Source: Candidatus Aminicenantes bacterium (GTDB taxonomy: Bacteria > Acidobacteriota > Aminicenantia > Aminicenantales > Saccharicenantaceae). From it: 64,000 nt of DNA. Below the pieces are notes generated by a model that saw only the letters and a program-made list of their open reading frames with translations, did not search any database and was not told the DNA's origin. The first letter of the stretch is position 1, and every line of letters starts with the position of its first letter. Shown here piece after piece: positions 25,556-43,003 of the stretch. The position numbers were made by a program, and so were the translations under genes. Location of the stretch: NCBI GenBank assembly GCA_963719985.1, contig CAVRDU010000005.1, forward strand, positions 1,156,432 through 1,220,431, in the 5' to 3' direction.

Positions 25556-25614
25556 CGGTTGACTCGGCGCAGCGTTCCGGCTATCCTCGGCGTATTCACC
25601 GACGAGGAGGCCAC

Positions 25615-27531
25615 ATGGACAAGCGCGCGCGGAAAGTCATCGTTCCGGCGATCTTCGCGGCCGCGGGCGTTATCGCCCTGACGGCGCAGGATCAGGGCCT
25701 GCGGGGCCGGGAGAGCTTCGAGCCGAGGCCGACGAAAGCGTACATCGTCGGGGGCGTCCGTCACGGCGCGAGCTTCTTCCCCCGGGCCGGCTACGAGTTC
25801 ACCAAGCCCAAGGCCGCCGGGGAGATGGACTTCCTCCACTACCACACCTACGACGAGGTCAACGGCTTCCTCGAGAAGTGGGCCGCGGACCACCCCGACA
25901 TCGTCGAGCTCTATTCGGTCGGGAAATCCTACGAGGGCCGGGAGATCTGGCAGATCACCATCACCAACAAGACGACCGGCAAGGACACCGACAAGCCGGC
26001 CATGTTCATCGAGGGCAACCGGCACTCCGGCGAGGTCACGGCGGCCGAGTGCGCGCTCTGGTTCGCCGACCACATCATCCGGGGCTACGGCAAGGACCCG
26101 GGGCTGACGAAGCTCGTCGATACCAAGGCGATCTACGTCCGGGTCAAGAACAATCCCGACGGCTCGATGCTCTACCTGAACACGGCCCAGTCGAACCGGA
26201 GCACGGTCCGGCCCTACGACGACGACCGCGACGGCCTTCTCGACGAGGACCCGCCCGAGGACCTCGACGGCGACGGCTTCATCCTCCAGGTCCGCAAGAA
26301 GGTCGAGCCCGGGAAGGGCACGATGGTCGTCGATCCCGACGACCCTTCGGGCCGGCTCATGAAGCGGGCCGAGCCGGGCAAGGGCGACTATGTCGTCTCC
26401 TCCGAGGGCGTCGACAACGACGGCGACGGCCGGACGAACGAGGACGGCATCGGCGGCCTGGACCTCCACCGCAACTACCCGGAGAACTGGCGGCCCATGC
26501 CCGGCCGCGACCTGACCGGACGCGGCTGGACCCAGGGCGGGGCCGGCGAGTATCCGCTCTCCGAAACCGAGACGCGGGCCGTCTTCACTTTCCTCCTCGA
26601 GCACCCCAACGTCAGCGTCGTCCAGACGATGGACACGACCGTGCCCATGCTGCTCCACGGCCCGTCGACCAGCCGGATGAGCGAGTCGATGTTCCCCGAG
26701 GACATGAAGATCTACCAGTACTTCGACGAGCAGGGCAAGAAGATCACCGGCTACGCCAGCGCCGGGGACACCTATTGGGACTACGCCAACATGGGCCGCG
26801 GCGACCGCGAGATGAGGGCCCGGGCCGCGGAGATGGGCTTCGAGGTCCCCGACGAGCCCCAGGGCAGGCCGCTCTTCGGCCACTCCCCCGACTTCGGCTA
26901 CCTCTATTACGGCGCCGTCTGGTACGGCGACGAGCTCTGGAACGGCGGCCGGCTCAAGGACTACGACGGCGACGGCCGCGTGACCGAGCTCGAGAGCCTG
27001 CGCTTCATCGACGAGGAGCTCGGCGGCCGCTATTTCAAGCCCTGGACGAAGGCCCACCACCCGGTCCTCGGCGAGGTCGAGATCGGCGGCTTCAACCCCA
27101 AGTTCTGGCGTCAGAACCCGCCCGTCGAGCTCCTCGAGGAATGGATCAAGAAGGAGGCCCTGTTCAATCTCCTCCTGGCCCAGTCGCTGCCGCAGGTGCA
27201 GGTCCTCTCCGCGGAGATGAAGCCGGTCCGGAAGGAAGCGGACACGTACGAGATCGTGGCCGTCTTCACGAACGAAGGCTTCCTGCCGACGGCCCTCAAG
27301 ATGGCCGAGCGGGTCAAGATCGTCCGGCCGGACGCGGTCTCGGTCCGGCTCCCGGCCGGGGCCGAGCTCGTCGGCGGCCGGGCCCGCCAGGAGATCGGCC
27401 ACCTCAAATCGAACGAGCGCAAAGAGGTCCGGTGGAAGATCAAGGTCAAGCCGGGCACGGCCGGCGAGGCCGAGGTCTCGATCCAGTCGACGCGGGGCGG
27501 CGTGGCCCGCAAGACTGTCAAGATCGGCTAG
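25615..27531 (+). CDS. Secreted M14-family zinc carboxypeptidase
   Basis: It has a signal peptide and an M14 core (HYHTYDEVNGFLEKWAADHPD, GNRHSGEV). It is 638 aa. Confidence 0.8.
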   Translation: MDKRARKVIVPAIFAAAGVIALTAQDQGLRGRESFEPRPTKAYIVGGVRHGASFFPRAGYEFTKPKAAGEMDFLHYHTYDEVNGFLEKWAADHPDIVELYSVGKSYEGREIWQITITNKTTGKDTDKPAMFIEGNRHSGEVTAAECALWFADHIIRGYGKDPGLTKLVDTKAIYVRVKNNPDGSMLYLNTAQSNRSTVRPYDDDRDGLLDEDPPEDLDGDGFILQVRKKVEPGKGTMVVDPDDPSGRLMKRAEPGKGDYVVSSEGVDNDGDGRTNEDGIGGLDLHRNYPENWRPMPGRDLTGRGWTQGGAGEYPLSETETRAVFTFLLEHPNVSVVQTMDTTVPMLLHGPSTSRMSESMFPEDMKIYQYFDEQGKKITGYASAGDTYWDYANMGRGDREMRARAAEMGFEVPDEPQGRPLFGHSPDFGYLYYGAVWYGDELWNGGRLKDYDGDGRVTELESLRFIDEELGGRYFKPWTKAHHPVLGEVEIGGFNPKFWRQNPPVELLEEWIKKEALFNLLLAQSLPQVQVLSAEMKPVRKEADTYEIVAVFTNEGFLPTALKMAERVKIVRPDAVSVRLPAGAELVGGRARQEIGHLKSNERKEVRWKIKVKPGTAGEAEVSIQSTRGGVARKTVKIG

Positions 27532-28909
27532 ATCGACCGGAGCCCGGCTTTCCGGCCGAGAGGCCGTAGGTCTTGACCTTGTAGGCGAGCATCCGCTCGG
27601 TGATGCCCAGCGCGCGGGCGGCCCGGCTCTTGACCCCGCCGGCCTCCCGGAGGGCCATACGGATCTCCTGCGTCTCGAGGCGGCGGACCTTGTCGACCAG
27701 GGAATCGCCGGCCGTTCCGGGATCCTCGTAGGCGGCTTCCGTGAGGCTGAGGGGAAGGTCGGCGACGCCGAGGACGTCCCGCTCGGCGAATACGACCGCC
27801 CGCTCGACGACGTTCTCGAGCTCGCGGACGTTGCCGGGATAGGCGTGGCCCACGAGGGCGCCCAGGGCCTCCCGCGTGATCCCCTGGATCTTCTTTCCCT
27901 CCCGCTCGGCGAATTTCCTGAGGAAGAGGTCGGCCAGGAGCGGGATGTCCTCCTTCCTCTTGCGGAGCGGAGGCACGGCGATGGGGATGACGTTCAGGCG
28001 GTAGAAGAGGTCGGCCCGGAACCGGCCGCCTTTCATCTGGGTTTCGAGGTCCCGGTTGGTCGCGGCGATGATCCTGACGTCGGCCCGGAGCGCCTGGCTC
28101 GAGCCGAGCCTGTAGTACTCCCGGTCCTGGAGGAAGCGCAGCAGCTTGACCTGGGCCTCGGGGGCGAGGTCGCCGATCTCGTCGAGGAAGACGGTCCCGC
28201 CGGAGGCGGCCTCGAACTTGCCGATCTTCCGCTCGTGGGCGCCGGTGAAAGACCCTTTCTCGGCCCCGAAGAGCTCCGCCTCGATGAGGGTCTCGGGGAG
28301 GGAAGGGATGTTCAGCGCGACGTACGGGCCTTTCTTTCGCGCCGAGGACTGGTGGATCATCCGGGCCACGAGGTCCTTGCCGGTCCCCGTCTCCCCGGTG
28401 ACGAGGACCGTGGCCTCGCTCCGCGCGGCCTTGAGGACAAGGCGGGCGACGTCCTCCATGAGCGGGGAGGCGAAGACGAAGTTCCGGACGCTGAGCTTCT
28501 CCTCCAGGCGCTCCTGGAGGGACGAGATCTCTTTCTTGAGCTTCTGCCGCTCCGCGGCCCGCTCGAGGACGAGGAGGAACCTCTCGAAGTCGAGCGGCTT
28601 GACGATGTAGTCGTAGGCCCCGGCGCGGACGGCCTCGACGGCCCGCTCGATGTTCCCGTAGGCGGTGACCATGATCGGCGTCACCAGGGGATTGGCCGCG
28701 AGCACGTCCCGGATGACGTCGATGCCCGTTTCGTCGCCGAGCTTGTAGTCGACGACGGCCACGTCGACCGGGTTGCGGAGCACGGCCTCGAGGGCCTCCT
28801 TCCGGGAAGCGGCCTCGACGACCGGGAAGCCGCGCGCCTCCAGGTTCTTCCGGATGAGCTGGCGCTGGACGGGATCGTCCTCGACGATCAGGATGAGGGG
28901 CTCGTTCAT
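27518..28909 (-). CDS. Sigma54-dependent response regulator (NtrC family enhancer-binding protein)
   Basis: It has a REC domain (LIVEDD...D54), an AAA+ sigma54-interaction domain (GETGTGKDL, GAFTGA-like GSFTGA, ESELFGAEKG) and a C-terminal HTH. The probable start MNEPLIL is at 28909. Confidence 0.92.
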   Translation of the reverse strand: MNEPLILIVEDDPVQRQLIRKNLEARGFPVVEAASRKEALEAVLRNPVDVAVVDYKLGDETGIDVIRDVLAANPLVTPIMVTAYGNIERAVEAVRAGAYDYIVKPLDFERFLLVLERAAERQKLKKEISSLQERLEEKLSVRNFVFASPLMEDVARLVLKAARSEATVLVTGETGTGKDLVARMIHQSSARKKGPYVALNIPSLPETLIEAELFGAEKGSFTGAHERKIGKFEAASGGTVFLDEIGDLAPEAQVKLLRFLQDREYYRLGSSQALRADVRIIAATNRDLETQMKGGRFRADLFYRLNVIPIAVPPLRKRKEDIPLLADLFLRKFAEREGKKIQGITREALGALVGHAYPGNVRELENVVERAVVFAERDVLGVADLPLSLTEAAYEDPGTAGDSLVDKVRRLETQEIRMALREAGGVKSRAARALGITERMLAYKVKTYGLSAGKPGSGRSSRS

Positions 28910-28910
28910 G

Positions 28911-30152
28911 TCACGCTCCAGGAAGCTCGATCCGGAATTCCGTCCCGTGGCCTTCGCGGCCGCGGACATCGATCGTTCCGCCGTGCGCTTCGATGATCCT
29001 TCTGGTCAGGTACAGGCCTATCCCCATCCCTTTCTCCTTGGTCGTGTAGAACGGCTCGAAGACACGGGCCGCGGCTTCAGGCGGCAGGCCGGGCCCGCCG
29101 TCGTGGACGATGACCTCGACCTTCTTGCCGATCCGCCGGCCGCGGGCCCGTACGGGCGCGTCCGGCGAGGCCTCGATGGCGTTCTTCAGGACGTTGAGGA
29201 AGGCCTGGACCAGGAGGTCCCGATCGCCGGACAGGAGGACACCCGGAGCGGGCTCGACCTCGAGGCGCGACGGCGCGCCAGGGACCTCGGCGGCCAGGCT
29301 CTCCGCGGCCTGTCGCAGAACGTCGTCGAGCGACAGGGCCTCGAGGTCCGGCCGGACGGCCTTAACGACGCGCGAGAACCGGTCGACGATGCGGGCGATC
29401 GTCCGGACCTGGGCCTTTCCGAGATCGACGTCGCTCTTGGCCTCCGGGGGGGACTTGCGGCCCAGGAGCTCGAGGGCGAGGGCCAGGCTGTTGAGGGGGT
29501 TCTTGATCTCGTGGGCGACGCCCGATGTGAACGCCGAGATCTCCCGGAACCTCTCTTTCTCGAGCCGCTCGGTCTCGGCCTCGCGGGCCTTGGCCACGTA
29601 ATCCGACTGGAGCCGGTAGAGGCCCCGGAAGAAGATGGCGCCGGCGAGAAGGATGAGCCCGGCGATGAGGTAGGAGGTTCGCCGGGACGAGGCGATCATC
29701 TCCTCCATCCCCGCCAGGGCATAGCCCAGGTAGAGGAAGTACGCGCGGCCGCCAGCGGCCGAGAAGGCCGAAAGAGAGCTGTAGATCTTGCCGGCGGGGG
29801 ACTCGATGACGCTCGATCCCCCGGACCGGGCGTCCCTGAGGGAGATCGGGAGGTAGCCCTCGTATCGGGAGTTCCAGGCCAGGACGTTCTTCTCCGCGTC
29901 GAGGAGGGCGACGAAATAGATGTTCTCCCCGGACAGGATGGCCTCGAGGACCTCCTCGGGGGCCCTGCCCTCGTCGAGGAAGTGGGAAGCCGTCGTCCGG
30001 AGGATGCCCGACGTGGCCTCGAGCTGATCGTGGACGAGCCCTTCCGTCCGGCGCTTCAGGTCGGCCTGGGCGAGGACGGACGACAGGGCGAAGAAGACGA
30101 GCACGCCCAGGAAGGGGAGGACGAAGAAAAGGAGGACGCTGCGCCGCTTCAA
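28911..30152 (-). CDS. Sensor histidine kinase with periplasmic sensing domain
   Basis: It has two TM helices flanking a roughly 140-aa periplasmic domain, a HisKA domain (SGVAHEIKNPLNSL) and a HATPase_c domain (HDGGPGLP, GMGIGL). Confidence 0.9.
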   Translation of the reverse strand: MKRRSVLLFFVLPFLGVLVFFALSSVLAQADLKRRTEGLVHDQLEATSGILRTTASHFLDEGRAPEEVLEAILSGENIYFVALLDAEKNVLAWNSRYEGYLPISLRDARSGGSSVIESPAGKIYSSLSAFSAAGGRAYFLYLGYALAGMEEMIASSRRTSYLIAGLILLAGAIFFRGLYRLQSDYVAKAREAETERLEKERFREISAFTSGVAHEIKNPLNSLALALELLGRKSPPEAKSDVDLGKAQVRTIARIVDRFSRVVKAVRPDLEALSLDDVLRQAAESLAAEVPGAPSRLEVEPAPGVLLSGDRDLLVQAFLNVLKNAIEASPDAPVRARGRRIGKKVEVIVHDGGPGLPPEAAARVFEPFYTTKEKGMGIGLYLTRRIIEAHGGTIDVRGREGHGTEFRIELPGA

Positions 30153-30583
30153 ATGCCGCCGAACCTCTTGATGCCCCGTTTCCGCTGTCCGCCCTGCCAG
30201 CGGGGGAAGCCCCGCTTGTCCCGGAGCGTGAGCGTTTCGCCCCGGAACTGGAGCTCGCGGGCGATGATGGTCGCCTTCCCGTCGGGGGTCTCCGAGAGGG
30301 AGCCTATGCCCTTCACCCTCTCGCCGCCGTGGATGTCCTCTTGGAAGAACCAGGACGGGCTGACCTCGACGCTGACCATCTTCTCCCGTCCGGGCGCCTC
30401 GATGCGGAGGACGAGAAAGGGGGCCGTCCCCTGGTAGCGGGGTTCGAGGACGATCTCCCGGACCGTCCCTTCGAAGCGGACCTCCTTGTCGACGTCGTAG
30501 AAGTGTCCGGCGGCCGTCTGCCCCGCGGCCGGGACCGCGGCGAGCGCCGCGAGCAACGGGATGAGCCAGGCCGTGCGTTTCAT
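30149..30583 (-). CDS. Small periplasmic protein (signal peptide), hypothetical
   Basis: The 144-aa protein starts MKRTAWLIPLLAALAAVPAAGQ. The longer ORF extension to 30988 is spurious. Confidence 0.6.
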   Translation of the reverse strand: MKRTAWLIPLLAALAAVPAAGQTAAGHFYDVDKEVRFEGTVREIVLEPRYQGTAPFLVLRIEAPGREKMVSVEVSPSWFFQEDIHGGERVKGIGSLSETPDGKATIIARELQFRGETLTLRDKRGFPRWQGGQRKRGIKRFGGI

Positions 30584-31833
30584 GAGAGTCCTCCCTTCCG
30601 CCGGATCGGCAGGTTCCACTGGAACCCGCCCATGATGTAGCCGCTGCTCCATTCGAACAGCGGGTCGGTCGAGGCGTTGTCGATGTGGGAATAGGCCAGG
30701 AAGACCGTGAATCGCCGGAAGTTCTTCTCCAGGCGGGCCTCGAAGAGATGCCGGACGTCGTTCCGGACGATGCCGAGGGGCAGGCCGTCGAGGCCCATGC
30801 TTTCGACGCCGGGATAGGTCTTGTCGGAATAGGTGTATCCGGCCCTGACCTCGACGCTCCCCGGCAGGCTCAGGGTGATCCGGCCGGTGAGCTGGTCGCC
30901 CTCCCAGGAAAAGGCGTCCGCGCTCGGGTTCGGCACGAGGTAGAACTCCTCGATCGACATGAACGGGTTCTCCCCGGAGACGACCCACTGCCTCATGGCC
31001 GAAGCGCTCAAGCCGACGACGTCGGCGACGCCCTGGGCCACGAGGAAGGACGCGGAAACGTGCCCGATGCCGGCGCCTCCCTCCCCCGGCCGCGGGATGA
31101 AGCCGTAGCCGCCCTCGTAATCGCGGCCGCCCCAGCCCCCGCCGCCCCCCGAGCCCGCGCCCATGCCGCCGCCCCCGGCGGCGGCCAGGGAGGCCGTCCC
31201 GGACGGCTCCGTCATGGGAACGTAGGCCTCAGGCACGAACGGATGGAGAAAATACTTGTACCCGTATTCCGCCTCCGCCTTCAGGGTCGTCCGGGTCGGG
31301 AAGTACTTGTCGATGGAGAGGAGCGCGGCGTGGCTGAAGAAGTCGAACAGGCTGTCCGCGTACGAGGAGTAGGTCCCCTGCCATTGGACCCTGAGGATAG
31401 AGGACGGGGCCAGGTAGGTCTTGAAAGCGCCGGTCAGGCTTCCGCCGATCGCGCTGAAGGCCTCGTATCCCCGGCCATAGAAGGCCCCGGCCCCGCCGGC
31501 GGCGAAATAGAAGGCGCTCTTGCCTCCGGCCGGAACGAGGTAATCGAGACCGAGCCCGGCCGAGAGGAAGCTCAGCCCGCTCGTCTGATGAAAGGCCGAG
31601 TAATCCACATTGGCCATGAGGGTGAGGGCCGAGATGTCGTGGTCGACGGCGAGCGAGAAGGCCGTGATCTGATCCGCCACGGCGTCGCGCGTCTGGAACA
31701 GGTTCTGAGTGGCGTGCTGGTTGAAGGTCAAGTCGAGCGTGGCCCCATGGGCCGAGACGGCCGCGACGAGGAGGACCAGGGCGATTTGCCGCATCTGCCT
31801 CATTATCATGATGTAAAACCCCCGATCAATCAA
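30580..31833 (-). CDS. Putative outer-membrane beta-barrel protein, hypothetical
   Basis: It has a signal peptide (MRQMRQIALVLLVAAVSAHG) and alternating aromatic/hydrophobic beta-strand-like segments separated by Gly-rich loops. The start is probably internal, near 31803. Confidence 0.55.
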   Translation of the reverse strand: MIDRGFYIMIMRQMRQIALVLLVAAVSAHGATLDLTFNQHATQNLFQTRDAVADQITAFSLAVDHDISALTLMANVDYSAFHQTSGLSFLSAGLGLDYLVPAGGKSAFYFAAGGAGAFYGRGYEAFSAIGGSLTGAFKTYLAPSSILRVQWQGTYSSYADSLFDFFSHAALLSIDKYFPTRTTLKAEAEYGYKYFLHPFVPEAYVPMTEPSGTASLAAAGGGGMGAGSGGGGGWGGRDYEGGYGFIPRPGEGGAGIGHVSASFLVAQGVADVVGLSASAMRQWVVSGENPFMSIEEFYLVPNPSADAFSWEGDQLTGRITLSLPGSVEVRAGYTYSDKTYPGVESMGLDGLPLGIVRNDVRHLFEARLEKNFRRFTVFLAYSHIDNASTDPLFEWSSGYIMGGFQWNLPIRRKGGLS

Positions 31834-31885
31834 GAATAAAGGGCCTCCCCCCCGCGCCGGCGGAGGGGAGGCCTCGGATAACGGG

Positions 31886-32515
31886 TCAGCGGCCGCCCTT
31901 TTTCTGCGTGCCGCCCTTGGGCCCGGCGCCGTTGCCGGCCCCGGCCGCCTTTCCGGCGCCCTGGATGCCGGCGCGGAAAGAGCCCTTGCCGAAGCTGGAC
32001 TTGGTCACCTTGCCGGCCTTCTGCCCCTGGGTCATCTCGGTCTCGTCCGGCTGGCCGATCTTGTGCTGGCCTTGGTAGCCGGATCCGTCCTCGGGCTTGA
32101 CCCAGTCGGGGTCTTGGCCGTTGGGGACTCCGTCGCCGTCGTCGTCGCGCGCGAGCTGGTAGGCGTAGCCCTCAGCCGTGCCGGCCGCGGCGCCCTTCTT
32201 GTTCTGGGCCTTGTCGCCGGTCCCGTCCCCGGGCTTGGCCCAGTCGGGGTCCTGGCCGTTGGGGACGCCGTCCCCGTCGTGGTCCTTGGCGCGGTCGTTG
32301 ATCCCGTCGCCGTTCTCGTCGATGAAGGCGACGCGATTGCGATGCTGGAACTCCGGCTTCGCCTGGACCTTGTTCTGCTGGGTCTCGCCCTTGGCCTTCA
32401 GCCCGGTCTTGATCTGGGCCTTCTCCTGGGCCTTGGTCGCGGTCTGGTCCTGAGCGGCCGCGAAGAGCATGCCGACCATCAGGATCCCGACCATGATCGT
32501 GAACATCTTTTTCAT
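31886..32515 (-). CDS. Secreted protein with thrombospondin type 3-like Ca-binding repeats (DGDGVPNGQDPDW x2)
   Basis: It has a signal peptide (MKKMFTIMVGILMVGMLFAAA) and a GGAGG RBS. It is 210 aa, with Asp/Gly-rich Ca-binding repeat motifs. Confidence 0.7.
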   Translation of the reverse strand: MKKMFTIMVGILMVGMLFAAAQDQTATKAQEKAQIKTGLKAKGETQQNKVQAKPEFQHRNRVAFIDENGDGINDRAKDHDGDGVPNGQDPDWAKPGDGTGDKAQNKKGAAAGTAEGYAYQLARDDDGDGVPNGQDPDWVKPEDGSGYQGQHKIGQPDETEMTQGQKAGKVTKSSFGKGSFRAGIQGAGKAAGAGNGAGPKGGTQKKGGR

Positions 32516-32551
32516 CTTATGACCTCCTAAGTCATGGATGCCAGACATATA

Positions 32552-32569
32552 TGCGAAAGGCGTGCCAAC
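32552..32569 (-). promoter_or_regulatory. Sigma54 (-24/-12) promoter TTGGCACGCCTTTCGCAT driving the 31886-32515 gene and the downstream operon
   Basis: The minus-strand sequence TTGGCACG-N4-TCGCAT is one mismatch from the TTGGCACG-N4-TTGCA consensus. It lies about 35 nt upstream of the start codon. An AT-rich tract and palindromes further upstream could be IHF or EBP binding sites. Confidence 0.65.
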
Positions 32570-32680
32570 ATGGATATATAAGAAAACAAAAAAGATATAA
32601 AAATCTGCGGAGCCGCGGACCGACAAAAATGTCGGACCGAACGACATTTTCGGCATCCGATGCCCGCGTCGGCGGATTCC

Positions 32681-32688
32681 TGTATAAT
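32681..32688 (+). promoter_or_regulatory. Extended -10 element TGTATAAT upstream of the ECF sigma gene
   Basis: TGTATAAT lies 80 nt upstream of the ATG at 32770. Confidence 0.35.
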
Positions 32689-32769: not shown

Positions 32770-33348
32770 ATGGAAGAGAAACAGCTGGTCCGACTGGCCC
32801 AGGAAGGAAGCGCGGAGGCTTTCGAGGAGCTGGTCAGGAGATTCCAGCCCAAGGTGTTCAGCATGGCATTGAGCTTCACGCGCAACCGGCAGGCGTCCGA
32901 CGACCTGGCCCAGGAGGTCTTCCTGAAGGCCTATCTCGCCCTGCCCCGGTTCCACGGGAAGTCGGAGTTCGGGACCTGGCTCTACCGCATATCGGTCAAC
33001 CACATCAAGGACTTTCTGCGCAAGAAGGGCCGGGCCAAGGAAGTCTCGCTCGACGACGTCCGCGAGATCTCCTTCTCGGACCGGGAACAGACGGAGCGCG
33101 CGGAGGAAGAGAGGGAGATCGAGGACCGCCGGACGCTCGTGCGGAGGTTCGTCGAGGCCCTGCCCGAGAAGTACCGGGTCATCCTGACGCTCCGGGACAT
33201 CCAGGGCCTGGCCTACGAGGACATCTCCCGGGTCCTCAAGCTCTCGCCCGGGACGGTCGACTCGCGGCTCCACCGGGCGCGCCGGATGCTCCGCGTCAAG
33301 CTGGCTCCGCATCTCGCCGGCGAAGGAGGGACACATGAACTGTCGTAA
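32770..33348 (+). CDS. ECF-subfamily RNA polymerase sigma factor
   Basis: It has sigma70 regions 2 and 4 (LAQEVFLKAYLALPRF and YRVILTLRDIQGLAYEDISRVLKLSPGTVDSRLHRAR) and is 192 aa. Confidence 0.9.
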   Translation: MEEKQLVRLAQEGSAEAFEELVRRFQPKVFSMALSFTRNRQASDDLAQEVFLKAYLALPRFHGKSEFGTWLYRISVNHIKDFLRKKGRAKEVSLDDVREISFSDREQTERAEEEREIEDRRTLVRRFVEALPEKYRVILTLRDIQGLAYEDISRVLKLSPGTVDSRLHRARRMLRVKLAPHLAGEGGTHELS

Positions 33349-33823
33349 GGCCGAAAAACGGCTCCTGCAGTCCCTCGACGGGCGCCTCGACGGGCCCGCC
33401 GCGGGCCTCCTCGGCAAGCACCTCGAGTCCTGCCCGGCCTGCCGGAAAGCCGCGAGGGAATACCGGTCCATGCTCGGCCTCCTGCGGGACCGCGGCGAAG
33501 CCGAACCTCTCCCCCGGTTCTGGGAGCGGTTCGAGCCCCGGCTTCGGGAGGAGAAAGAGATCGCCCCGTTCCTCTTCTGGGAGCGCTGGAGCCTGAGGGC
33601 CATCCCCGTGTTCCTGGCGCTCGTCGTCATGATGGGCGGGTTCCTCTTCCTGACCCCCCAGGCCGGCGAGCTGAGCCAGTCGGCGGCCCTGCTCCTCGAG
33701 AACCGCGATCCCCTCTCGGAGACCCACGCCCTCCTCGAGGTGGACAAGCCCGAGACGAGGACCATGATGCTCCTGTTCGCGTCGCTGGACGAGAAAACGC
33801 CCCTAAGGAGGCCGACGCCATGA
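33335..33823 (+). CDS. Membrane-anchored zinc-finger anti-sigma factor
   Basis: It carries an HLESCPACR motif (the HxxxCxxC zinc-binding anti-sigma motif) and a TM helix. It is translationally coupled to the sigma factor gene. Confidence 0.75.
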   Translation: MNCRKAEKRLLQSLDGRLDGPAAGLLGKHLESCPACRKAAREYRSMLGLLRDRGEAEPLPRFWERFEPRLREEKEIAPFLFWERWSLRAIPVFLALVVMMGGFLFLTPQAGELSQSAALLLENRDPLSETHALLEVDKPETRTMMLLFASLDEKTPLRRPTP

Positions 33824-34275
33824 AGACGAAATACAGGATCCTCGTCGCCCTGACCCTGCTCGTCGTCTTCGGCCTCGGTGTCGCCGCCGGCGTCCTCGGT
33901 GAACGGTATGTCCTGCAGAAGAGGAACCGGCGCACGACCGCCGTGCGGTCGCACCCGCCGTCCCCCGAGAGCTGGGCCAAGGAGCTCGGCCTGACCGAGG
34001 AGCAGCAGGCCGCGATGCGCGGGATCTTCGAGAAGAACGAAGAGCGGATGAAGACCTACCGGGGCGAGAGCCGGGCCCGGCTCGGCGAGCTCCGCAAGAT
34101 GCTCTGGGACGAGACCAACGCGGTCCTCACGCCGGAGCAGAAGAAGAAGAACGACGAGATGATCCGCCGCTTCGAGGAGCGGCGAAAACAGGAATCCGGC
34201 CGTTCCGGATCGGATCGGAACAACACGCGCGACCGGCGCGGCGACGACCCGCCATCACCGGACCGCGAGCGATAA
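33820..34275 (+). CDS. Periplasmic CpxP/Spy-family (LTxxQ motif) protein
   Basis: It has a signal peptide and two LTxxQ motifs (LGLTEEQQAAM, LTPEQKKKNDEM). Confidence 0.7.
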   Translation: MKTKYRILVALTLLVVFGLGVAAGVLGERYVLQKRNRRTTAVRSHPPSPESWAKELGLTEEQQAAMRGIFEKNEERMKTYRGESRARLGELRKMLWDETNAVLTPEQKKKNDEMIRRFEERRKQESGRSGSDRNNTRDRRGDDPPSPDRER

Positions 34276-34287
34276 AGGAGACACGCC

Positions 34288-35708
34288 ATGAAAAAGAAGG
34301 TCATCTGGATCATCGTCGCCCTGGTCGTCGTGGCCGGGGCCATCCTCGGCCTGACCGTCTTCCGCAACGGGAAGGACGGCAAGGTCGAATATCGGACCGA
34401 GGCCGTCAGCCGGGGCGACATCGAGGCCCTGGTCGTCACGTCCGGGACGCTCAATCCTCTCGAGACGGTCGACGTCGGGGCCCAGGTCTCGGGCAAGATC
34501 GTCGAGCTCTACGCCGACTTCAACTCCCAGGTCACCAAGGGCCAGGTCGTGGCCGAGCTCGACCAGGAGCCCCTGAAGATGAAGATCGACCAGAACGAGG
34601 CCAACTACAAGAGCCGCGTCGCTTCTCTGGACCGGTCCAAGGTCAACCTGCAGACCGCCGAGAAGAACCTCGAGCGGGCCAAGTCGCCTCTTCGCCAAGG
34701 ACCTCATCTCGATCGAGGAGATGGACGCCGCCGAGGCGAACTACCTCAACGCCAAGAGCGACCTCGTCTCCGCCGAGGCCAGCCTGGCCCAGGCCAAGAG
34801 CACGCTCGACCTGAGCAAGGTCGACCTCGGATACGCCGTCATCAAGGCGCCGGTCGACGGGGTCGTCATCACCCGGAAGGTCAACATCGGCCAGACCCTC
34901 CAGTCGAGCTACCAGGCCCCGGTCCTGTTCCAGGTGGCCACCGACCTGACCAAGATGAAGGTCGAGTGCAGCGTCGACGAGTCCGACATCGGCAAGGTCA
35001 AGGAAGGGCAGAAGGTCCGGTTCACGGTCGAAGCTTACCCCACCGAGAACTTCAACGGCATCGTCCAGCAGGTCCGCTTCTCGCCCGAGACCGTCCAGAA
35101 CGTCGTCACGTACACGACGATCGTCAGCGTCGAGAACCCCGCGAAGAAGCTCCTCCCCGGCATGACGGCGACGGTGTCCATCATCGTCGGCGAGGCCAAG
35201 AACGTCCTCCGGGTCCCCAACGCCGCCCTCCGGTTCACGCCCATCCTCACTCCCGAGGAGATGGAGAAGCTGCTGACGGAGATGCGGGACAAGCTGATGG
35301 CCCAGCGACAGGCCGAAGGCGGCCAGCCGGCCGGCGCCCAGCCGGGCGCCAAGGTCAGCGGCGGGGCCGCTCCGGCCGCGGCCCGGCCGCAAGGCCAGGG
35401 CGGGCGCGATGATGTTTCCGGGCCAGGGCGGCGGCGAAGGCCAGGCCGGCCGGGCCCGCCAGCAGGCGCCCCGGATCTGGATCAAGGGAGAGAACGGGAA
35501 GCTCCTGCCGGTCATGGTCCGGACGGGCGTCGCGGACACAAGCTACACGGAGATCGCCCGGGCCATCGGCGCCGAGCTCAAGGAGGGCGATGTCCTCGTC
35601 ACCGGAACGCTGACGGCGTCGTCCAGGACAACGAACACCGGCATGAACCAGATGATGTTCATGGGCGGCCCGGCGCCGGCGGTAGGCTCGGCCCGGCTGA
35701 GGAGAACG
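34288..35708 (+). CDS. macA: MacA/HlyD-family efflux periplasmic adaptor; two +1 frameshifts (near 34683 and 35398), likely assembly indels
   Basis: The N-terminal part is in frame 1, the middle in frame 2 (from 34721) and the C-terminal part in frame 3 (from about 35400). No in-frame stop separates it from the macB ATG. Confidence 0.8.
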
Positions 35709-35711
35709 ACC

Positions 35712-36397
35712 ATGCCCGGAAACGTCATAGAGCTGCAGAACCTGATCAAGACCTATCACATCGGCGAGACCCAGGTCAGAGCCCTGCGCGGCGTATCCTA
35801 CTCGATCGCCGCGGGGGAGTTCCTGGCCATCATGGGCCCGTCGGGATCGGGCAAGTCGACCTTGATGAACATCCTCGGCTGCCTGGACCGCCCGACCTCG
35901 GGAGAGTACATCCTCGACGGCGAGGAGGTCTCCACGTTCGACAAGAACAAGCTGGCCCGCGTCCGGAACCGTAAGATCGGATTCGTGTTCCAGAGCTACA
36001 ACCTCCTGGCCCGGACGACGGCCCTCGAGAACACCGAGCTGCCGCTTCTCTATTCGACCACGAACGGCCAGGACGTGACGAAGCGGGCCCTGGCCTCTCT
36101 CGCCGCCGTCGGCCTCAGCGACCGGGCCCACCACAAGACGAACCAGCTCTCGGGGGGCGAGCAGCAGCGGGTGGCCATCGCCCGGGCCCTGCTCAACAAC
36201 CCGACCCTGATCCTGGCCGACGAGCCGACGGGGAACCTGGACAGCAAGACGTCGTCGGAGGTCATGAACATCTTCAAGACCCTCAACGAGGACAAGGGCA
36301 TGACCATCGTCATGGTCACCCACGAGCCCGACATCGCCGCCTGGGCCCGGGCCCGGATCTACCTCAAGGACGGGCTCATCGTCGGGGAGGAGCGGTC

Positions 36398-36401
<4 letters not shown>
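35712..36401 (+). CDS. macB: ABC transporter ATP-binding protein (MacB/LolD family)
   Basis: Walker A (GPSGSGKST), the ABC signature (LSGGEQQRVAIARAL) and Walker B (ILADEPTGNLD) are present. Confidence 0.93.
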
Positions 36402-37642
<1,241 letters not shown>

Positions 37643-37693
37643 GCGCCGCCGGTCCCGCCGAGGGGCCGCCGGATGACGTTAAGGAGTATGACC

Positions 37694-39268
37694 ATGATGA
37701 AAAAGCTGATCCTGCCTATCATAGCCGTTTCCCTCGCCCTGGCCCCGGCCGTTCCGGCCCAGGAGGCCCAGGGCCCGACGCTGTCGATCTCTCTCGACGA
37801 GTGCATCGCCAGGGCCCTCAAGGACAACCTGGGCGTCGCCATCCAGGTGCTCGGGCCCCAGATCTCGTCGGAAGGGCTCAACCAGGCCCAGGCCAAGTAC
37901 ATCCCGACCCTGAGCATGAGCCTCAGCACGAGGAAATCGGAGAACGCCTCCTATTCCTATCTGGACGCGACCGACAGCCTCATCGACAAGACCCAGAACT
38001 TCACCTTCATGAACGCCAGCCAGAGCCTGCCGACCGGCGGGACCATGACACTGGACTTCACCGGATACCGGACGACGACGAACCGGAGAGGGACGACGAT
38101 CGACCCCCGCTACAGCACGACCCTGAGGTTCAGCCTCAGCCAGCCGTTGCTCAGGAACTTCGGCTTCAAGACGGCCCGGCGAGAGATCCTCGTGGCCACG
38201 AACAACCTCGGCGTTTCCGAGGAGACCCTCAAGAGGACCCTGCAGGAGACCGTCTACAGCGTCGAGAGCGCCTACTGGAACCTCGTCTACAGCATCGAGA
38301 ACCTGGAGGTACGGCGCCAGTCCCTGGCGCTGGCCAAGGACCTCCTCGAGAAGAACCAGCGATCGGTCGAGGTCGGGACCCTGGCCCCGATAGAGGTTCT
38401 GAGCGCCCGGGCCGAGGTGGCCACCCGCGAGGCCGACCTCATCCAGGCGGAGACCCAGATCCAGAGCAGCGAGGACGCCCTCCGGCTGCTCCTCAACCTC
38501 ACCGAGGGCGAGGGCCAGCCCGTGACAGCGCTCGTGCCCAAGGACAAGCCGACGTACCTCGCGAGAGAGGTCGACCTCGAGGAAGCCCTGGCCGCCGCCG
38601 TCCAGAACCGGACCGACCTCGAGATCTCCCGGATCGGCCTCGAGACGGAGAAGATCAACCTCAGCTACGCCAAGAACCAGGTCCTGCCCGACCTCAACCT
38701 GTCGGCGTCCTACTCCAGCCCGGGCATCGACGGGACCCAGATCGTCTACATCGGCAACCCTCTCGACGGGATCATCGACTACACCATTCCCGGAGATATC
38801 AGCGGCGCCCTGAAGCAGACCGCCAGGTTCCAATACCCGAACTGGAACCTCGGGCTGACCCTGAACATCCCTCTGGCCAACGTCTTCTCCCGGGCCTCTC
38901 TGGCCCAGGCCCGGCTGAACATGCGCCAGGCTATGCTCGAGATCGAGAACCAGAAGGAGCAGGTCTACGTCGAGATCAAGAACGCCGTCCGCGCCGTCCA
39001 GGCCAACTATAAAAGGATCCTCGCCTTCGGCACGGCCCGGCAGCTCGCCGAGCAGAAGCTCGCGGCCGAGGAGGAGAAGCGCCGGGTCGGCATGAGCACG
39101 AACTACATGGTCCTGTCCTATCAGAGGGACCTGGCCAACGCCCGGATCTCCGAGCTCAACGCCATCATCTCCTACAACGTCTCCCTCGCCTCGCTGGAGA
39201 GGTCGATGGGGACGAACCTCAAGTCGAAGAACATCAACCTGTCCGGAATCGCCCCGGGCCTCGATTGA
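37694..39268 (+). CDS. TolC-family outer membrane efflux protein
   Basis: It has a signal peptide, two repeat halves with outer membrane efflux protein motifs, and an AGGAG RBS. Confidence 0.85.
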   Translation: MMKKLILPIIAVSLALAPAVPAQEAQGPTLSISLDECIARALKDNLGVAIQVLGPQISSEGLNQAQAKYIPTLSMSLSTRKSENASYSYLDATDSLIDKTQNFTFMNASQSLPTGGTMTLDFTGYRTTTNRRGTTIDPRYSTTLRFSLSQPLLRNFGFKTARREILVATNNLGVSEETLKRTLQETVYSVESAYWNLVYSIENLEVRRQSLALAKDLLEKNQRSVEVGTLAPIEVLSARAEVATREADLIQAETQIQSSEDALRLLLNLTEGEGQPVTALVPKDKPTYLAREVDLEEALAAAVQNRTDLEISRIGLETEKINLSYAKNQVLPDLNLSASYSSPGIDGTQIVYIGNPLDGIIDYTIPGDISGALKQTARFQYPNWNLGLTLNIPLANVFSRASLAQARLNMRQAMLEIENQKEQVYVEIKNAVRAVQANYKRILAFGTARQLAEQKLAAEEEKRRVGMSTNYMVLSYQRDLANARISELNAIISYNVSLASLERSMGTNLKSKNINLSGIAPGLD

Positions 39269-39355: not shown

Positions 39356-39451
39356 CGGCCGGCGGGTCTCCTTGCGTTCGCGGCGCGGCTGTGCTATGCT
39401 CGGATCAAAGGGTGATCGAGCCAGCCCAAACCAGCTTTGGGAGAATCTTCC

Positions 39452-39796
39452 ATGAACAGAAGGCTGATACGGCCTAACCTCACCGAGATCAAGGAACGGA
39501 TGAGCCAGGACAAGGACCGGGAGAAGGAGGCCTCGCGGAAGCGGATGCATCCGCCGACCGACACTTTCGCCGAGAGCTACTACTACCTCAAGCAGATGAA
39601 CAAGAAGACCCCGGTGGCCGTCGTCTACACGAGCGGCGAGGCCGTCGAGGGCTACATCGAGTGGTACGACCGCAACTGCATCAAGCTCAACCGGGACGAC
39701 GCTCCGAACCTCCTCATCTACAAGGCCAGCATCCGCTGCGTCTACAAGGTCGGCGAGGCCCCCGAGCCCGAAGGCGAGCCCTCCGGCGGGAAATGA
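39452..39796 (+). CDS. Sm-like (Hfq-like) protein with an N-terminal extension
   Basis: The segment VAVVYTSGEAVEGYIEWYDRNCIKLNRDDAPNLLIYKASI parallels the Hfq Sm1/Sm2 pattern ([39 protein letters not shown]). The stop overlaps the pdxA start. Confidence 0.55.
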   Translation: MNRRLIRPNLTEIKERMSQDKDREKEASRKRMHPPTDTFAESYYYLKQMNKKTPVAVVYTSGEAVEGYIEWYDRNCIKLNRDDAPNLLIYKASIRCVYKVGEAPEPEGEPSGGK

Positions 39797-40770: not shown

Positions 40771-41203
40771 GCGCGGCCCGGATCTCCCGGTCCGCGTCCC
40801 TCTTCTTGATGGCCTCGCGCTTCTCGTGCTCGCGCTTTCCCCGGGCGAGGGCGAGCTCCAGCTTGATCCGTCCCCTGTCGCCGACGAAGACGCGCGTCGG
40901 GACGATGGTCAGGCCGCGCTCCTGGGTCTTCCCGGCCAGCCGCTTGATCTCGCGGCGGTGGAGCAGGAGCTTGCGGTCGCGGAGAGGATCGTGGTTGAAG
41001 ATGTTGGCCGCCTCGTAGGGGCTGATGTGGCACTTGACCAGGAAGACCTCGGTCCCGCGGACTTCGGCGTAGCTCTCCTTGAGCGAGACCCGGCCGGCCC
41101 GGACCGATTTGACCTCGCTGCCGACGAGGGCCATCCCGGCCTCGAAGGTCTCGAGCACGAGGTAGTCGTGGGAGACGGACTTGTTGACGGCCAGCGTCTT
41201 CAT
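40751..41203 (-). CDS. smpB: SsrA-binding protein
   Basis: The 150-aa protein has the SmpB signature (NKSVSHDYLVLETFEAGMALVGSEVKS) throughout. Confidence 0.93.
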   Translation of the reverse strand: MKTLAVNKSVSHDYLVLETFEAGMALVGSEVKSVRAGRVSLKESYAEVRGTEVFLVKCHISPYEAANIFNHDPLRDRKLLLHRREIKRLAGKTQERGLTIVPTRVFVGDRGRIKLELALARGKREHEKREAIKKRDADREIRAALKHRSR

Positions 41204-42474
41204 TTCAAGACCGATCCGCCGCCTGCCACGGGAGCGATCTCGATGAGGCTGATGTGCCGCTTGGACATCTTCTCGACGGTCAGCCGGAAACCGCCGAACT
41301 CCAGGGAATCCTTCTCGCGGGGCAGGCGCCCGAACGCGTAGAGGAAGAACCCGGCGATGGTCGTGTAGTCCCGCTTCTCGGGGGCGCCCAGGGCGAAGAG
41401 GGCGTTGACGTCCTTGACCGGCGCGGCGCCGGCGACGACGACGCGGCCGCCGTCGCGGCGGGAGTACCAGTCCTCGGACTGCCCGTCGTGCTCGTCCTGG
41501 ATCTCGCCGACGATCTCCTCGATGATGTCCTCGAGGGTCACAAGCCCGTCGACGTTGCCGAACTCGTCGACGACGAGGGCCATGTGGACGGCCTTCTCCT
41601 GCATCTGGAGCAGGACCTTCTCGAGCGAAGCGAGCTCGGGGACGAAGAACGGCTTGCGCAGGATGTCCTGCACGGAAAACTCTTTGTTGTCAATTAGATG
41701 GCCGATGACGTCCTTGCTGTGGACGACCCCCTCGATGTTGTCGAGGCGGCCCCGGTAGACCGGATAGCGCGAGTAGCCGCTCGACCGGACGGCCTCGATG
41801 ACCGCCGCGCGGCCGGATTCGATCTCGATGGCTTTGACCTCGGGGCGCGGGACCATGACCTCCTTGACCGGCCGGGAGCCGATGTCGAGCGCGCCGGAAA
41901 CGATCCGGCGCCGGAGCGCGGACAGGCCGCGCGTCCCGGCGTGGATGGCGATGCGCGTCTCCTCTTCGTTGAGGGAGCGGCCGGCGGTGTCCTTGGCCGT
42001 CCTCGACGAAGGCATGAGGATCCCGGTCAGGAGCGAGAAGAGCTTGACCACGGGGGCGAGCAGGAACATCGCCGCCCGGAGCGGATAGGCGAACAGGGTG
42101 GCCGTCCTGACCGCGTTGTGGGCGGCGAAGGTCTTGGGATTGATCTCGGCGAACACGAGCAACAGGAGCGTCGTCGCGACGGTGGCGTAGATGACCGACC
42201 GGCTCCGGTGCTCCTCCGGCAGGACGCTGGCGAACAGGGTCGTGGCCAGGGAGGCCGCGGCCGCGTTGACCAGGGTGTTCCCGATGAGGATCGTGGCCAG
42301 GAGATCGTTCGTCCTGGCCCGGATCCTCCGGGCCAGGCCGGCCGGCTTCGAGCCCTTCTTGTCGCGGTATTCGAGGGAGTAGGGATTGGCCGCGATATAG
42401 GCCGTCTCGGAGGAGGAGAAGAAGGCGCTCAGGACGAGGCACAGGATGAAAAGAAGGATCCCCGGCAGGATCAT
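41200..42474 (-). CDS. HlyC/CorC-family transporter (DUF21 plus CBS pair plus CorC_HlyC domains)
   Basis: It has an N-terminal DUF21 membrane domain, two CBS domains and a C-terminal transporter-associated domain. It is 424 aa. Confidence 0.88.
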   Translation of the reverse strand: MILPGILLFILCLVLSAFFSSSETAYIAANPYSLEYRDKKGSKPAGLARRIRARTNDLLATILIGNTLVNAAAASLATTLFASVLPEEHRSRSVIYATVATTLLLLVFAEINPKTFAAHNAVRTATLFAYPLRAAMFLLAPVVKLFSLLTGILMPSSRTAKDTAGRSLNEEETRIAIHAGTRGLSALRRRIVSGALDIGSRPVKEVMVPRPEVKAIEIESGRAAVIEAVRSSGYSRYPVYRGRLDNIEGVVHSKDVIGHLIDNKEFSVQDILRKPFFVPELASLEKVLLQMQEKAVHMALVVDEFGNVDGLVTLEDIIEEIVGEIQDEHDGQSEDWYSRRDGGRVVVAGAAPVKDVNALFALGAPEKRDYTTIAGFFLYAFGRLPREKDSLEFGGFRLTVEKMSKRHISLIEIAPVAGGGSVLK

Positions 42475-42484
42475 GGGCGTCGGA

Positions 42485-43003
42485 TCAGGCGGCGGCGCGG
42501 GCCTTGGCCGTCTTGAAGCAGCGGGAGAGGGTGTCCAGGAGCTTCTCCTCGACCTTGGACGACGGCGAGGCGGCTGCGAGCGAGATCTCGGACACGATGA
42601 GCTCCTTGGCCTTCTCCATCATCTTTTTCTCGCGGAACGAGAGGGGCTTGTGGAGGCTGAGGTAGTACAGGCTCTTCAGGACGGTGGCCATGTCGTAGAG
42701 CGTGCCCGACTTCATCAGGTTGAGGTGCTCCTTGTAGCGCCCCTTCCAGTCCGTCGTGACGTCGATATCGCCGTTCCCCATGAACTCGTAGATCTTCCGG
42801 ATGGACCCCTCCGTCACCGGGCGGCGGATGCCGATCTCGAAGGCCGTCGCGCTCGGCACGGTGACCAGGGTGTTGTTGGAGATGATCCGGAGGTGGAAGA
42901 CCATGAAGCTCTGGCCGTCGAAGGCCTGCTCGCGGATGCCTTCGATGACGCCCAGGCCCTGATTGGGATAAATGATCTTATCGCCGATCTTGAGAGATTT
43001 CAT
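42485..43003 (-). CDS. CarD/CdnL-family RNA polymerase-binding transcription factor
   Basis: It has a CarD N-terminal Tudor-like domain (KIGDKIIYPNQGLGVIEGI). Confidence 0.85.
   Translation of the reverse strand: MKSLKIGDKIIYPNQGLGVIEGIREQAFDGQSFMVFHLRIISNNTLVTVPSATAFEIGIRRPVTEGSIRKIYEFMGNGDIDVTTDWKGRYKEHLNLMKSGTLYDMATVLKSLYYLSLHKPLSFREKKMMEKAKELIVSEISLAAASPSSKVEEKLLDTLSRCFKTAKARAAA

Follow-up and report, generated by a model that had tools for sequence, protein, structure and literature searches.

A putative sigma-54-dependent, two-component-controlled envelope module conserved across Candidatus Aminicenantes

How is a set of envelope proteins regulated when their sensor kinase and their activator are encoded at the end of the same row of genes? 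This question is raised by five genes, g1 to g5, which all lie on the minus strand of a 64 kb stretch of DNA from Candidatus Aminicenantes (Acidobacteriota), hereafter the window. The original prediction considered them a self-contained operon that starts with a sigma-54 promoter and ends with a histidine kinase and an NtrC-type activator. From a comparison of orthologous loci, we moderately favour a somewhat different mechanism, that of a two-component-controlled, sigma-54-dependent envelope module conserved across Candidatus Aminicenantes, in which a hairpin sets g1 apart from the genes that follow.

A scan of one genome per species yielded 44 orthologous loci (L001-L044) with g2 identities of 36-78%. 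Gene order g1-g2-g3-g4-g5 was conserved in every sufficiently long locus, and the three envelope families g1, g2 and g3 were present in all 44 species-representative genomes having the locus. Their homologues are nearly all unnamed proteins of Candidatus Aminicenantes metagenome-assembled genomes (MAGs) and of metagenomes. The reading frames of all five genes look intact in the window.

The promoter upstream of g1 and its candidate activator sites

On the minus strand, positions 32569-32552 read TTGGCACGCCTTTCGCAT, with one mismatch to the consensus TGGCACG-N4-TTGCW. The near-consensus -24/-12 element of the original prediction proved to be the sole site with at most one mismatch on either strand of the 64 kb; exactly 10 bp separate its GG core from its GC core. 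Since 13 of 100 dinucleotide shuffles also gave at least one such site somewhere, the site count by itself is weak evidence. Decisive support came from position and conservation. The element lies 36 nt upstream of the g1 ATG, itself preceded by AGGAGG. Conservation in orthologous loci, on which the original prediction had made its claim depend, held in 43 of the 44; the remaining locus is cut at a contig edge. In the 41 loci that were scored (L025 and L026 were confirmed separately), the site was a GG-N10-GC element with 0-3 mismatches to the consensus, perfect in eight, and in 35 it was the best single match of the entire 6-17 kb locus, both strands included. Its distance to the g1 ATG was 33-41 nt in 39 of these loci and 65 nt in the other two. 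Conservation of the GG and GC cores was not counted as evidence, as the scan required them, but TGGCA was identical in 41 of 41 loci and the base after GC was always A or T, with a variable spacer between the cores. A chance match was rejected as an explanation owing to this conservation. The -24/-12 promoter is thus, as far as sequence comparison can tell, almost certainly real, and transcription would start near 32541, some 12 nt beyond the GC core.

With the loci anchored on TGGCAC, palindromes of 14 bp that follow the pattern C[G/T]ACA-N4-TGT[C/A]G came to light further upstream, in two registers about 20 bp apart. A strict search returned 38, spread over 33 of 43 loci and starting at -89 to -87 or at -69 to -67 from TGGCAC, and no occurrence elsewhere in about 630 kb of loci; loci having both palindromes kept the registers 20 bp apart. 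The original prediction had proposed to search this region for the palindromes of an enhancer-binding protein, and conserved palindromes were indeed found where an enhancer is expected, about 80-150 bp upstream. In the window, the proximal site starts at -67 from TGGCAC, which places its centre about 87 bp upstream of the presumed transcription start. The distal register, starting at about -88, is represented there by a single half-site; full palindromes in this register amounted to 13 site occurrences across the loci. Window half-site and proximal palindrome together read TGTCG-N7-CGACA-N4-TGTCG. In some loci both half-sites were changed symmetrically, to CTACA..TGTAG (L027-29, L043 and one of the two L034 sites) or to CTGACA..TGTCAG (L023). 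The positions were also kept where the gene of an extracytoplasmic function (ECF) sigma factor, a close neighbour of g1 in the window, is 3 kb off or absent (L007, L014, L023, L030, L031, L034-L036, L042), which assigns the palindromes to the g1 promoter. With up to one mismatch allowed, the window taken alone showed no enrichment (2 matches versus 2.4 expected), so that the evidence for these sites comes from the cross-species comparison.

Between activator sites and promoter lies an AT-rich spacer of about 50 bp. Its T-tracts possibly act as an intrinsic bend for DNA looping. By-eye inspection, with no formal scan run, showed no IHF consensus in it.

In the short leader of g1, the AGGAGG ribosome-binding site is flanked by the arms of an inverted repeat, ATGAC-N7-GTCAT (32519-32535, minus strand), which the close clade retains and which may either expose the site or hide it.

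The hairpin after g1 and the regulation of the module

The 76-nt spacer between g1 and g2 holds a GC-rich hairpin with a 14-bp stem (12 GC pairs), a loop of 4 and a folding energy of -33.6 kcal/mol (z = -3.2). As a GC-rich stem-loop followed by a U-tract, it has the predicted features of a rho-independent terminator in the window. About 38 of 42 loci carried, 0-38 nt beyond the g1 stop, a hairpin that folds at -19 kcal/mol or stronger; the medians are 17 pairs and -32 kcal/mol. In the alignable close clade, 6 of the 14 stem pairs showed double compensatory changes; in distant clades, stem sequences were unrelated and structure and position were retained. Judged by eye, a T-rich tail follows in roughly two thirds of the loci, and about one locus in three has a weak T-run or none (L004, L012, L034, L037, L038, L044).

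Only 0-37 nt separate the end of the hairpin from the g2 ATG, often just the ribosome-binding site. In distant clades (L027-L036, L044) the gap is about 5-25 nt and mostly ribosome-binding site. Because this gap is so short, a separate promoter downstream of the hairpin will not fit in most lineages, and transcripts of g2-g5 would therefore have to pass through the hairpin; g2-g5 are probably transcribed in this way. These four genes are translationally coupled, by an ATGA overlap of g2 and g3, a TTGA overlap of g3 and g4, where the TTG start of g4 overlaps the g3 stop, and a gap of 1 nt between g4 and g5. The five co-directional genes of the original prediction hence stood, in a conserved order, with the correction that g2 and g5 had been started slightly too far upstream. 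For g2, the TTG at 31833 (417 aa) adjoins the T-tail of the hairpin, which makes the alternative ATG at 31809 (409 aa) the likelier start, and for g5 the most likely start is the ATG at 28909, which a single base separates from the g4 stop.

The most economical reading would be that the hairpin is a leaky intrinsic terminator or an mRNA-stabilising 3' stem-loop. We somewhat favour a function as leaky attenuator. Since the conserved hairpin separates g1 from the coupled genes g2-g5, any feedback would occur via read-through and be attenuated. The positive feedback of the original prediction accordingly kept its arrangement, with the activator at the end of the transcript, which is found in glnALG and zraSR as well and is not unusual; its strength would be damped.

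Directly after the hairpin tail, the close clade keeps an 11-nt block, CTTGATTGATC (31824-31834, minus strand), and then GGGGGTTTT.CATC ahead of the g2 ATG. The block might serve as a processing site, as translation context or as a weak internal promoter.

From the promoter, the palindromes, the hairpin, the conserved gene order and the predicted folds of g2 and g3, we infer the following mechanism in all its steps. A periplasmic cue would be sensed by the membrane kinase g4, possibly with the help of the oligonucleotide/oligosaccharide-binding (OB) fold protein g3, and lead to phosphorylation of g5. Phosphorylated g5 would bind the two 14-bp palindromes about 20 bp apart, centred at about -87 and -107 relative to the transcription start, and, across the AT-rich spacer of about 50 bp, remodel sigma-54 RNA polymerase at TGGCAC-N7-GCA. 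The first coding region on the transcript would be that of g1; this protein is secreted, largely disordered and marked by DxDxDG units of the calcium-loop type. Most transcripts would be stopped or stabilised by the hairpin after g1, and a minority would read through into g2-g3-g4-g5. As an outcome, g1 would be much more abundant than g2-g5, and positive autoregulation of kinase and activator would be damped. The binder of the palindromes, the efficiency of the hairpin, the cue for the kinase and the function of the cargo are all deduced in this scheme; for the cargo, we would at best guess at a part in cation or envelope handling, g2 being a channel or exporter.

Several points speak against this mechanism. 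If the sigma-54 promoter were purely self-activated, a basal supply of g5 would be required, for which no source was identified. The pattern of the palindromes was drawn up only after the data had been seen. The DNA-binding helix of g5 is nearly invariant and shows no clean co-variation with the half-site variants, so that the link between g5 and the palindromes is one of position and co-inheritance; on these grounds g5 likely acts there. In the close clade, the block after the hairpin (CTTGATTGATCGGGGGTTTT.CATCATGAT) holds a weak sigma-70-like match and could be an internal or auxiliary promoter. Calcium binding by g1 was unsupported by any of the hidden Markov models (HMMs) searched. An RpoN box was absent from the window and from 656 kb of loci, which is uninformative at that scale; the presence of rpoN is suggested by the conserved GAFTGA loop of g5 and by the conserved promoter. 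Start site, termination efficiency and read-through, finally, are conclusions drawn from sequence.

Three other explanations deserve consideration. The cluster might consist of two units, g1 alone being the sigma-54 target and fully terminated, like the single gene zraP, and g2-g5 being expressed constitutively from their own promoter and without autoregulation. In a number of loci (L002, L008, L009, L011, L013, L018, L022, L035), hairpin and T-run do resemble a classical intrinsic terminator. The close clade moreover offers a sigma-70-like sequence, TTGATC-16-GATAAT at 31829-31802, together with the conserved block after the hairpin, and constitutive expression of g2-g5 would explain where the basal activator comes from. 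However, the few nucleotides between hairpin and g2 in the distant clades cannot accommodate a promoter, the candidate -10 box of the window overlaps the g2 start codon, and about a third of the loci have no more than a weak T-run. We therefore regard two separate units as unlikely, if still arguable.

The opposite case, the plain five-gene sigma-54 operon of the original prediction, with uniform expression, strong positive feedback and a functionally irrelevant hairpin, is in line with five co-directional genes in conserved order behind a single conserved upstream sigma-54 promoter. A terminator-like hairpin that is conserved between g1 and the tightly coupled g2-g5 does not agree with it. 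Very stable stems, kept in position and pairing across unrelated stem sequences and with compensatory changes, are unexpected for a neutral spacer, and we consider this simple arrangement improbable. More improbable still would be that the palindromes are operators of another regulator, for example of the divergent ECF operon, that g5 acts elsewhere and that a different activator serves the promoter. The window palindromes do lie within the 255-bp intergenic region shared with the ECF gene, and the lack of clean co-variation in the helix-turn-helix (HTH) domain of g5 would fit as well. Against this stand the exact distance of the palindromes from TGGCAC, kept even where the ECF gene is remote or missing, and the fact that neither the window nor any locus encodes an enhancer-binding protein other than g5, which always accompanies the promoter. 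Attenuated transcription of g2-g5 from the g1 promoter, activated by g5, remains the mechanism that we prefer. Table 1 lists the features on which it is built.

Table 1. Features of the g1-g5 locus in window coordinates
Feature	Position	Strand	Basis
Distal candidate activator register; only TGTCG half intact in the window, TGCCGAAAATGTCG	32642..32655	minus	comparison of loci
Proximal candidate activator palindrome CGACATTTTTGTCG	32621..32634	minus	perfect match, unique in the window
AT-rich spacer with phased T-tracts	32568..32620	minus	sequence; AT-richness kept in all loci
Sigma-54 -24/-12 element TGGCACGCCTTTCGCA	32552..32567	minus	consensus scan and conservation
Presumed g1 5' leader, short	32516..32541	minus	sequence
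g1, secreted protein, 209 aa, signal peptide	31886..32515	minus	sequence
GC-rich hairpin and tail CTTTATTCTT	31832..31873	minus	folding and comparison
g2, outer-membrane 16-stranded beta-barrel, 409 aa	30580..31809	minus	predicted fold
g3, periplasmic OB-fold protein, 144 aa, signal peptide	30149..30583	minus	predicted fold
g4, membrane histidine kinase, 413 aa, HisKA and HATPase_c	28911..30152	minus	domain search
g5, NtrC-class activator, 463 aa	27518..28909	minus	REC, Sigma54_activat and HTH_8

The encoded proteins and comparison with known systems

The two regulatory proteins corresponded to what had been proposed for them, a periplasm-sensing kinase and a sigma-54-dependent response regulator. 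In g4, transmembrane segments at residues 2-32 and 159-181 flank a periplasmic loop of about 125 residues. In g5, Pfam recognised Response_reg (5.5e-23), Sigma54_activat (2.3e-66) and HTH_8 (2.4e-10). The combination of a REC domain, an AAA+ domain with a GAFTGA-type loop and a Fis-type HTH domain places it in the NtrC class. The loop for contact with sigma-54 reads GSFTGA in the window and GAFTGA, GSFTGA, GAYTGA or GSYTGA across all orthologues. Sequence matches in the PDB were an NtrC-family regulator (4l4u, E 1e-105) and ZraR (1ojl, E 1e-87).

The gene order invites comparison with two described systems. In glnALG, an operon with an enhancer, the gene order behind the sigma-54 promoter begins with the effector and ends with the kinase and the NtrC-type activator (PMC4987338). 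Our locus shares with this enterobacterial glnA-ntrB-ntrC operon the two upstream activator sites, the presumably abundant effector gene at the front and the cognate pair at the end. Transcription of glnALG is attenuated between glnA and ntrB, and the operon has auxiliary sigma-70 promoters; none such were identified here. It differs further in its components, glutamine synthetase, the cytoplasmic NtrB and a nitrogen signal; the kinase of our locus possesses a periplasmic loop, and the cargo consists of secreted envelope proteins. With a score of 385 against 559, g5 did not reach the NtrC equivalog cutoffs.

In ZraPSR, a periplasm-sensing kinase and an NtrC-type regulator activate sigma-54 promoters for a small periplasmic protein as cargo and for their own genes (PMC4987338). 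ZraS and ZraR were among the best NCBIfam matches of g4 and g5. The zraP and zraSR genes diverge, however; those of our locus all run in one direction, and a hairpin intervenes. Membership in ZraPSR was rejected, as g1-g3 lack an LTXXQ/ZraP domain and the scores were far below the equivalog cutoffs (ZraS 116 vs 479, ZraR 395 vs 760). The layout loosely recalls zraP/zraSR with a cargo unrelated to ZraP, just as the original prediction had it. The regulatory principle is already known; what is new is the cargo, three uncharacterised and conserved envelope families.

The first of them, g1, consists of a signal peptide, a Q/K-rich segment, a FIDENGDGIND unit, two copies of DGDGVPNGQDPDW and a basic, Gly-rich C-terminus. 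Its family shares signal peptide, Q/K-rich segment and basic Gly-rich C-terminus, with 1-4 copies of FxDxNGDGxND...DxDGDGIPNGQDPDW in between. Sequence searches against Pfam, NCBIfam and the PDB gave no significant match. The thrombospondin type 3-like repeats that had been attributed to g1 were not borne out, as TSP_3 (E=6.3), TSP3_bac (E=3) and Excalibur (E=0.057) all scored below threshold. Only the DxDxDG motif is directly visible in the sequence; DxDxDG is a classical calcium-loop motif. Between species, g1 orthologues (P0242-P0359) carried 1-4 DxDGDGIPNGQDPDW units at lengths of about 140 to 255 aa. Most of them have a Cys in a C-terminal GxGVCDGTGPKG, a Cys that the window g1 lacks.

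An outer-membrane barrel and a periplasmic protein had been predicted for g2 and g3, and the structural models agreed with both. The AlphaFold2 (AF2) model of g2 shows a predicted 16-stranded barrel from residue 23 onwards and, apart from a disordered Gly-rich loop (residues 196-234), no further region. In Pfam and NCBIfam, g2 matched nothing. Its family, with 295 representatives of 1.84 billion, is small and carries no Pfam annotation; one sub-threshold Pfam match, of a remote member to SlipAM (E 5e-4), is a hint and not evidence. We also considered TpsA/TpsB two-partner secretion (TpsB/Omp85, for example FhaB/FhaC or CdiA/CdiB) and rejected it, as g2 has no N-terminal POTRA and no Pfam ShlB/POTRA match.

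For g3, with its predicted OB-fold and signal peptide, the closest structural matches were generic SSB/PriB-type OB-folds, and a PDB sequence search gave nothing significant. In Pfam and NCBIfam its one match was a weak one, to the C-terminal domain of the magnetosome protein MamS (31 bits, E 2.6e-7, NCBIfam NF040991). An identity with MamS was rejected, as the 31 bits compare with an equivalog cutoff of 200 and concern this C-terminal domain only. Periplasmic OB-folds of the BOF family, such as YgiW, are likewise signal-peptide-bearing, and ygiW adjoins the qseBC two-component genes; no significant sequence link between g3 and the BOF family was seen.

A more far-reaching idea would be that g1 and g2 form an undescribed minimal export pair, in which the POTRA-less 16-strand barrel moves g1, as an abundant, disordered protein with calcium-loop motifs, to the cell surface or the medium, with g3 as periplasmic co-sensor of the kinase, in a phylum-specific, sigma-54-switched system for the handling of cations, matrix or minerals. 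We consider it speculative and rather doubtful.

Aminicenantes are abundant in anoxic sediments and digesters and still uncultured, and a literature search for sigma-54 or rpoN in Aminicenantes found no papers. With activator sites, promoter, putative attenuator and cognate two-component pair, the locus offers a complete and comparatively validated regulatory unit, which could be rebuilt in a heterologous host. The three conserved, uncharacterised envelope protein families of this uncultured phylum would be priorities for study.

Neighbouring genes

Head-to-head with g1, a plus-strand operon (32770-39268) encodes the ECF sigma factor, a zf-HC2 anti-sigma factor and an LTXXQ (Spy/CpxP/ZraP-family) protein. 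It continues with a HlyD-family adaptor, an ABC ATPase, a MacB_PCD/FtsX permease and a TolC-like OEP, as in efflux systems of the MacAB-TolC type. Its ZraP-family gene therefore belongs under the ECF system and not under the sigma-54 promoter. Among the 44 loci, the ECF unit lay within about 1.1 kb of the module, mostly head-to-head, in 26 and about 3 kb away in 5; it was absent from the available flank in 9, and in the remaining 4 its position was limited by contig edges. With this ECF, anti-sigma and Spy/CpxP/ZraP unit so often close by, it is no longer clear that the module is self-contained, as originally stated.

A perfect TATAAT (32683-32688, plus strand) probably serves the ECF operon promoter as its -10 box, though a good -35 box is missing. 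Its reverse complement falls inside ATTATACAGGA, a block that the close clade keeps about 120 nt upstream of TGGCAC. The gene of the HlyD-family adaptor (34288-35470, plus strand) appears to be split over three frames, with breaks near 34700 and 35400; it could be a pseudogene, or the breaks could stem from indels in the assembly, as in a long-read MAG.

On the other side of the cluster, a convergent open reading frame (ORF) of 640 aa (25611-27531, plus strand) overlaps the g5 stop by 14 nt. It had no match in Pfam and NCBIfam. Like g1, it contains several DxDGDG motifs, and most of the closer loci have kept it as a neighbour. A few kb past the efflux operon follow an Hfq-related ORF (39416-39796, plus strand) and a gene for a CNNM/CorC-type (CBS-domain) divalent-cation transporter (41200-42618, minus strand).

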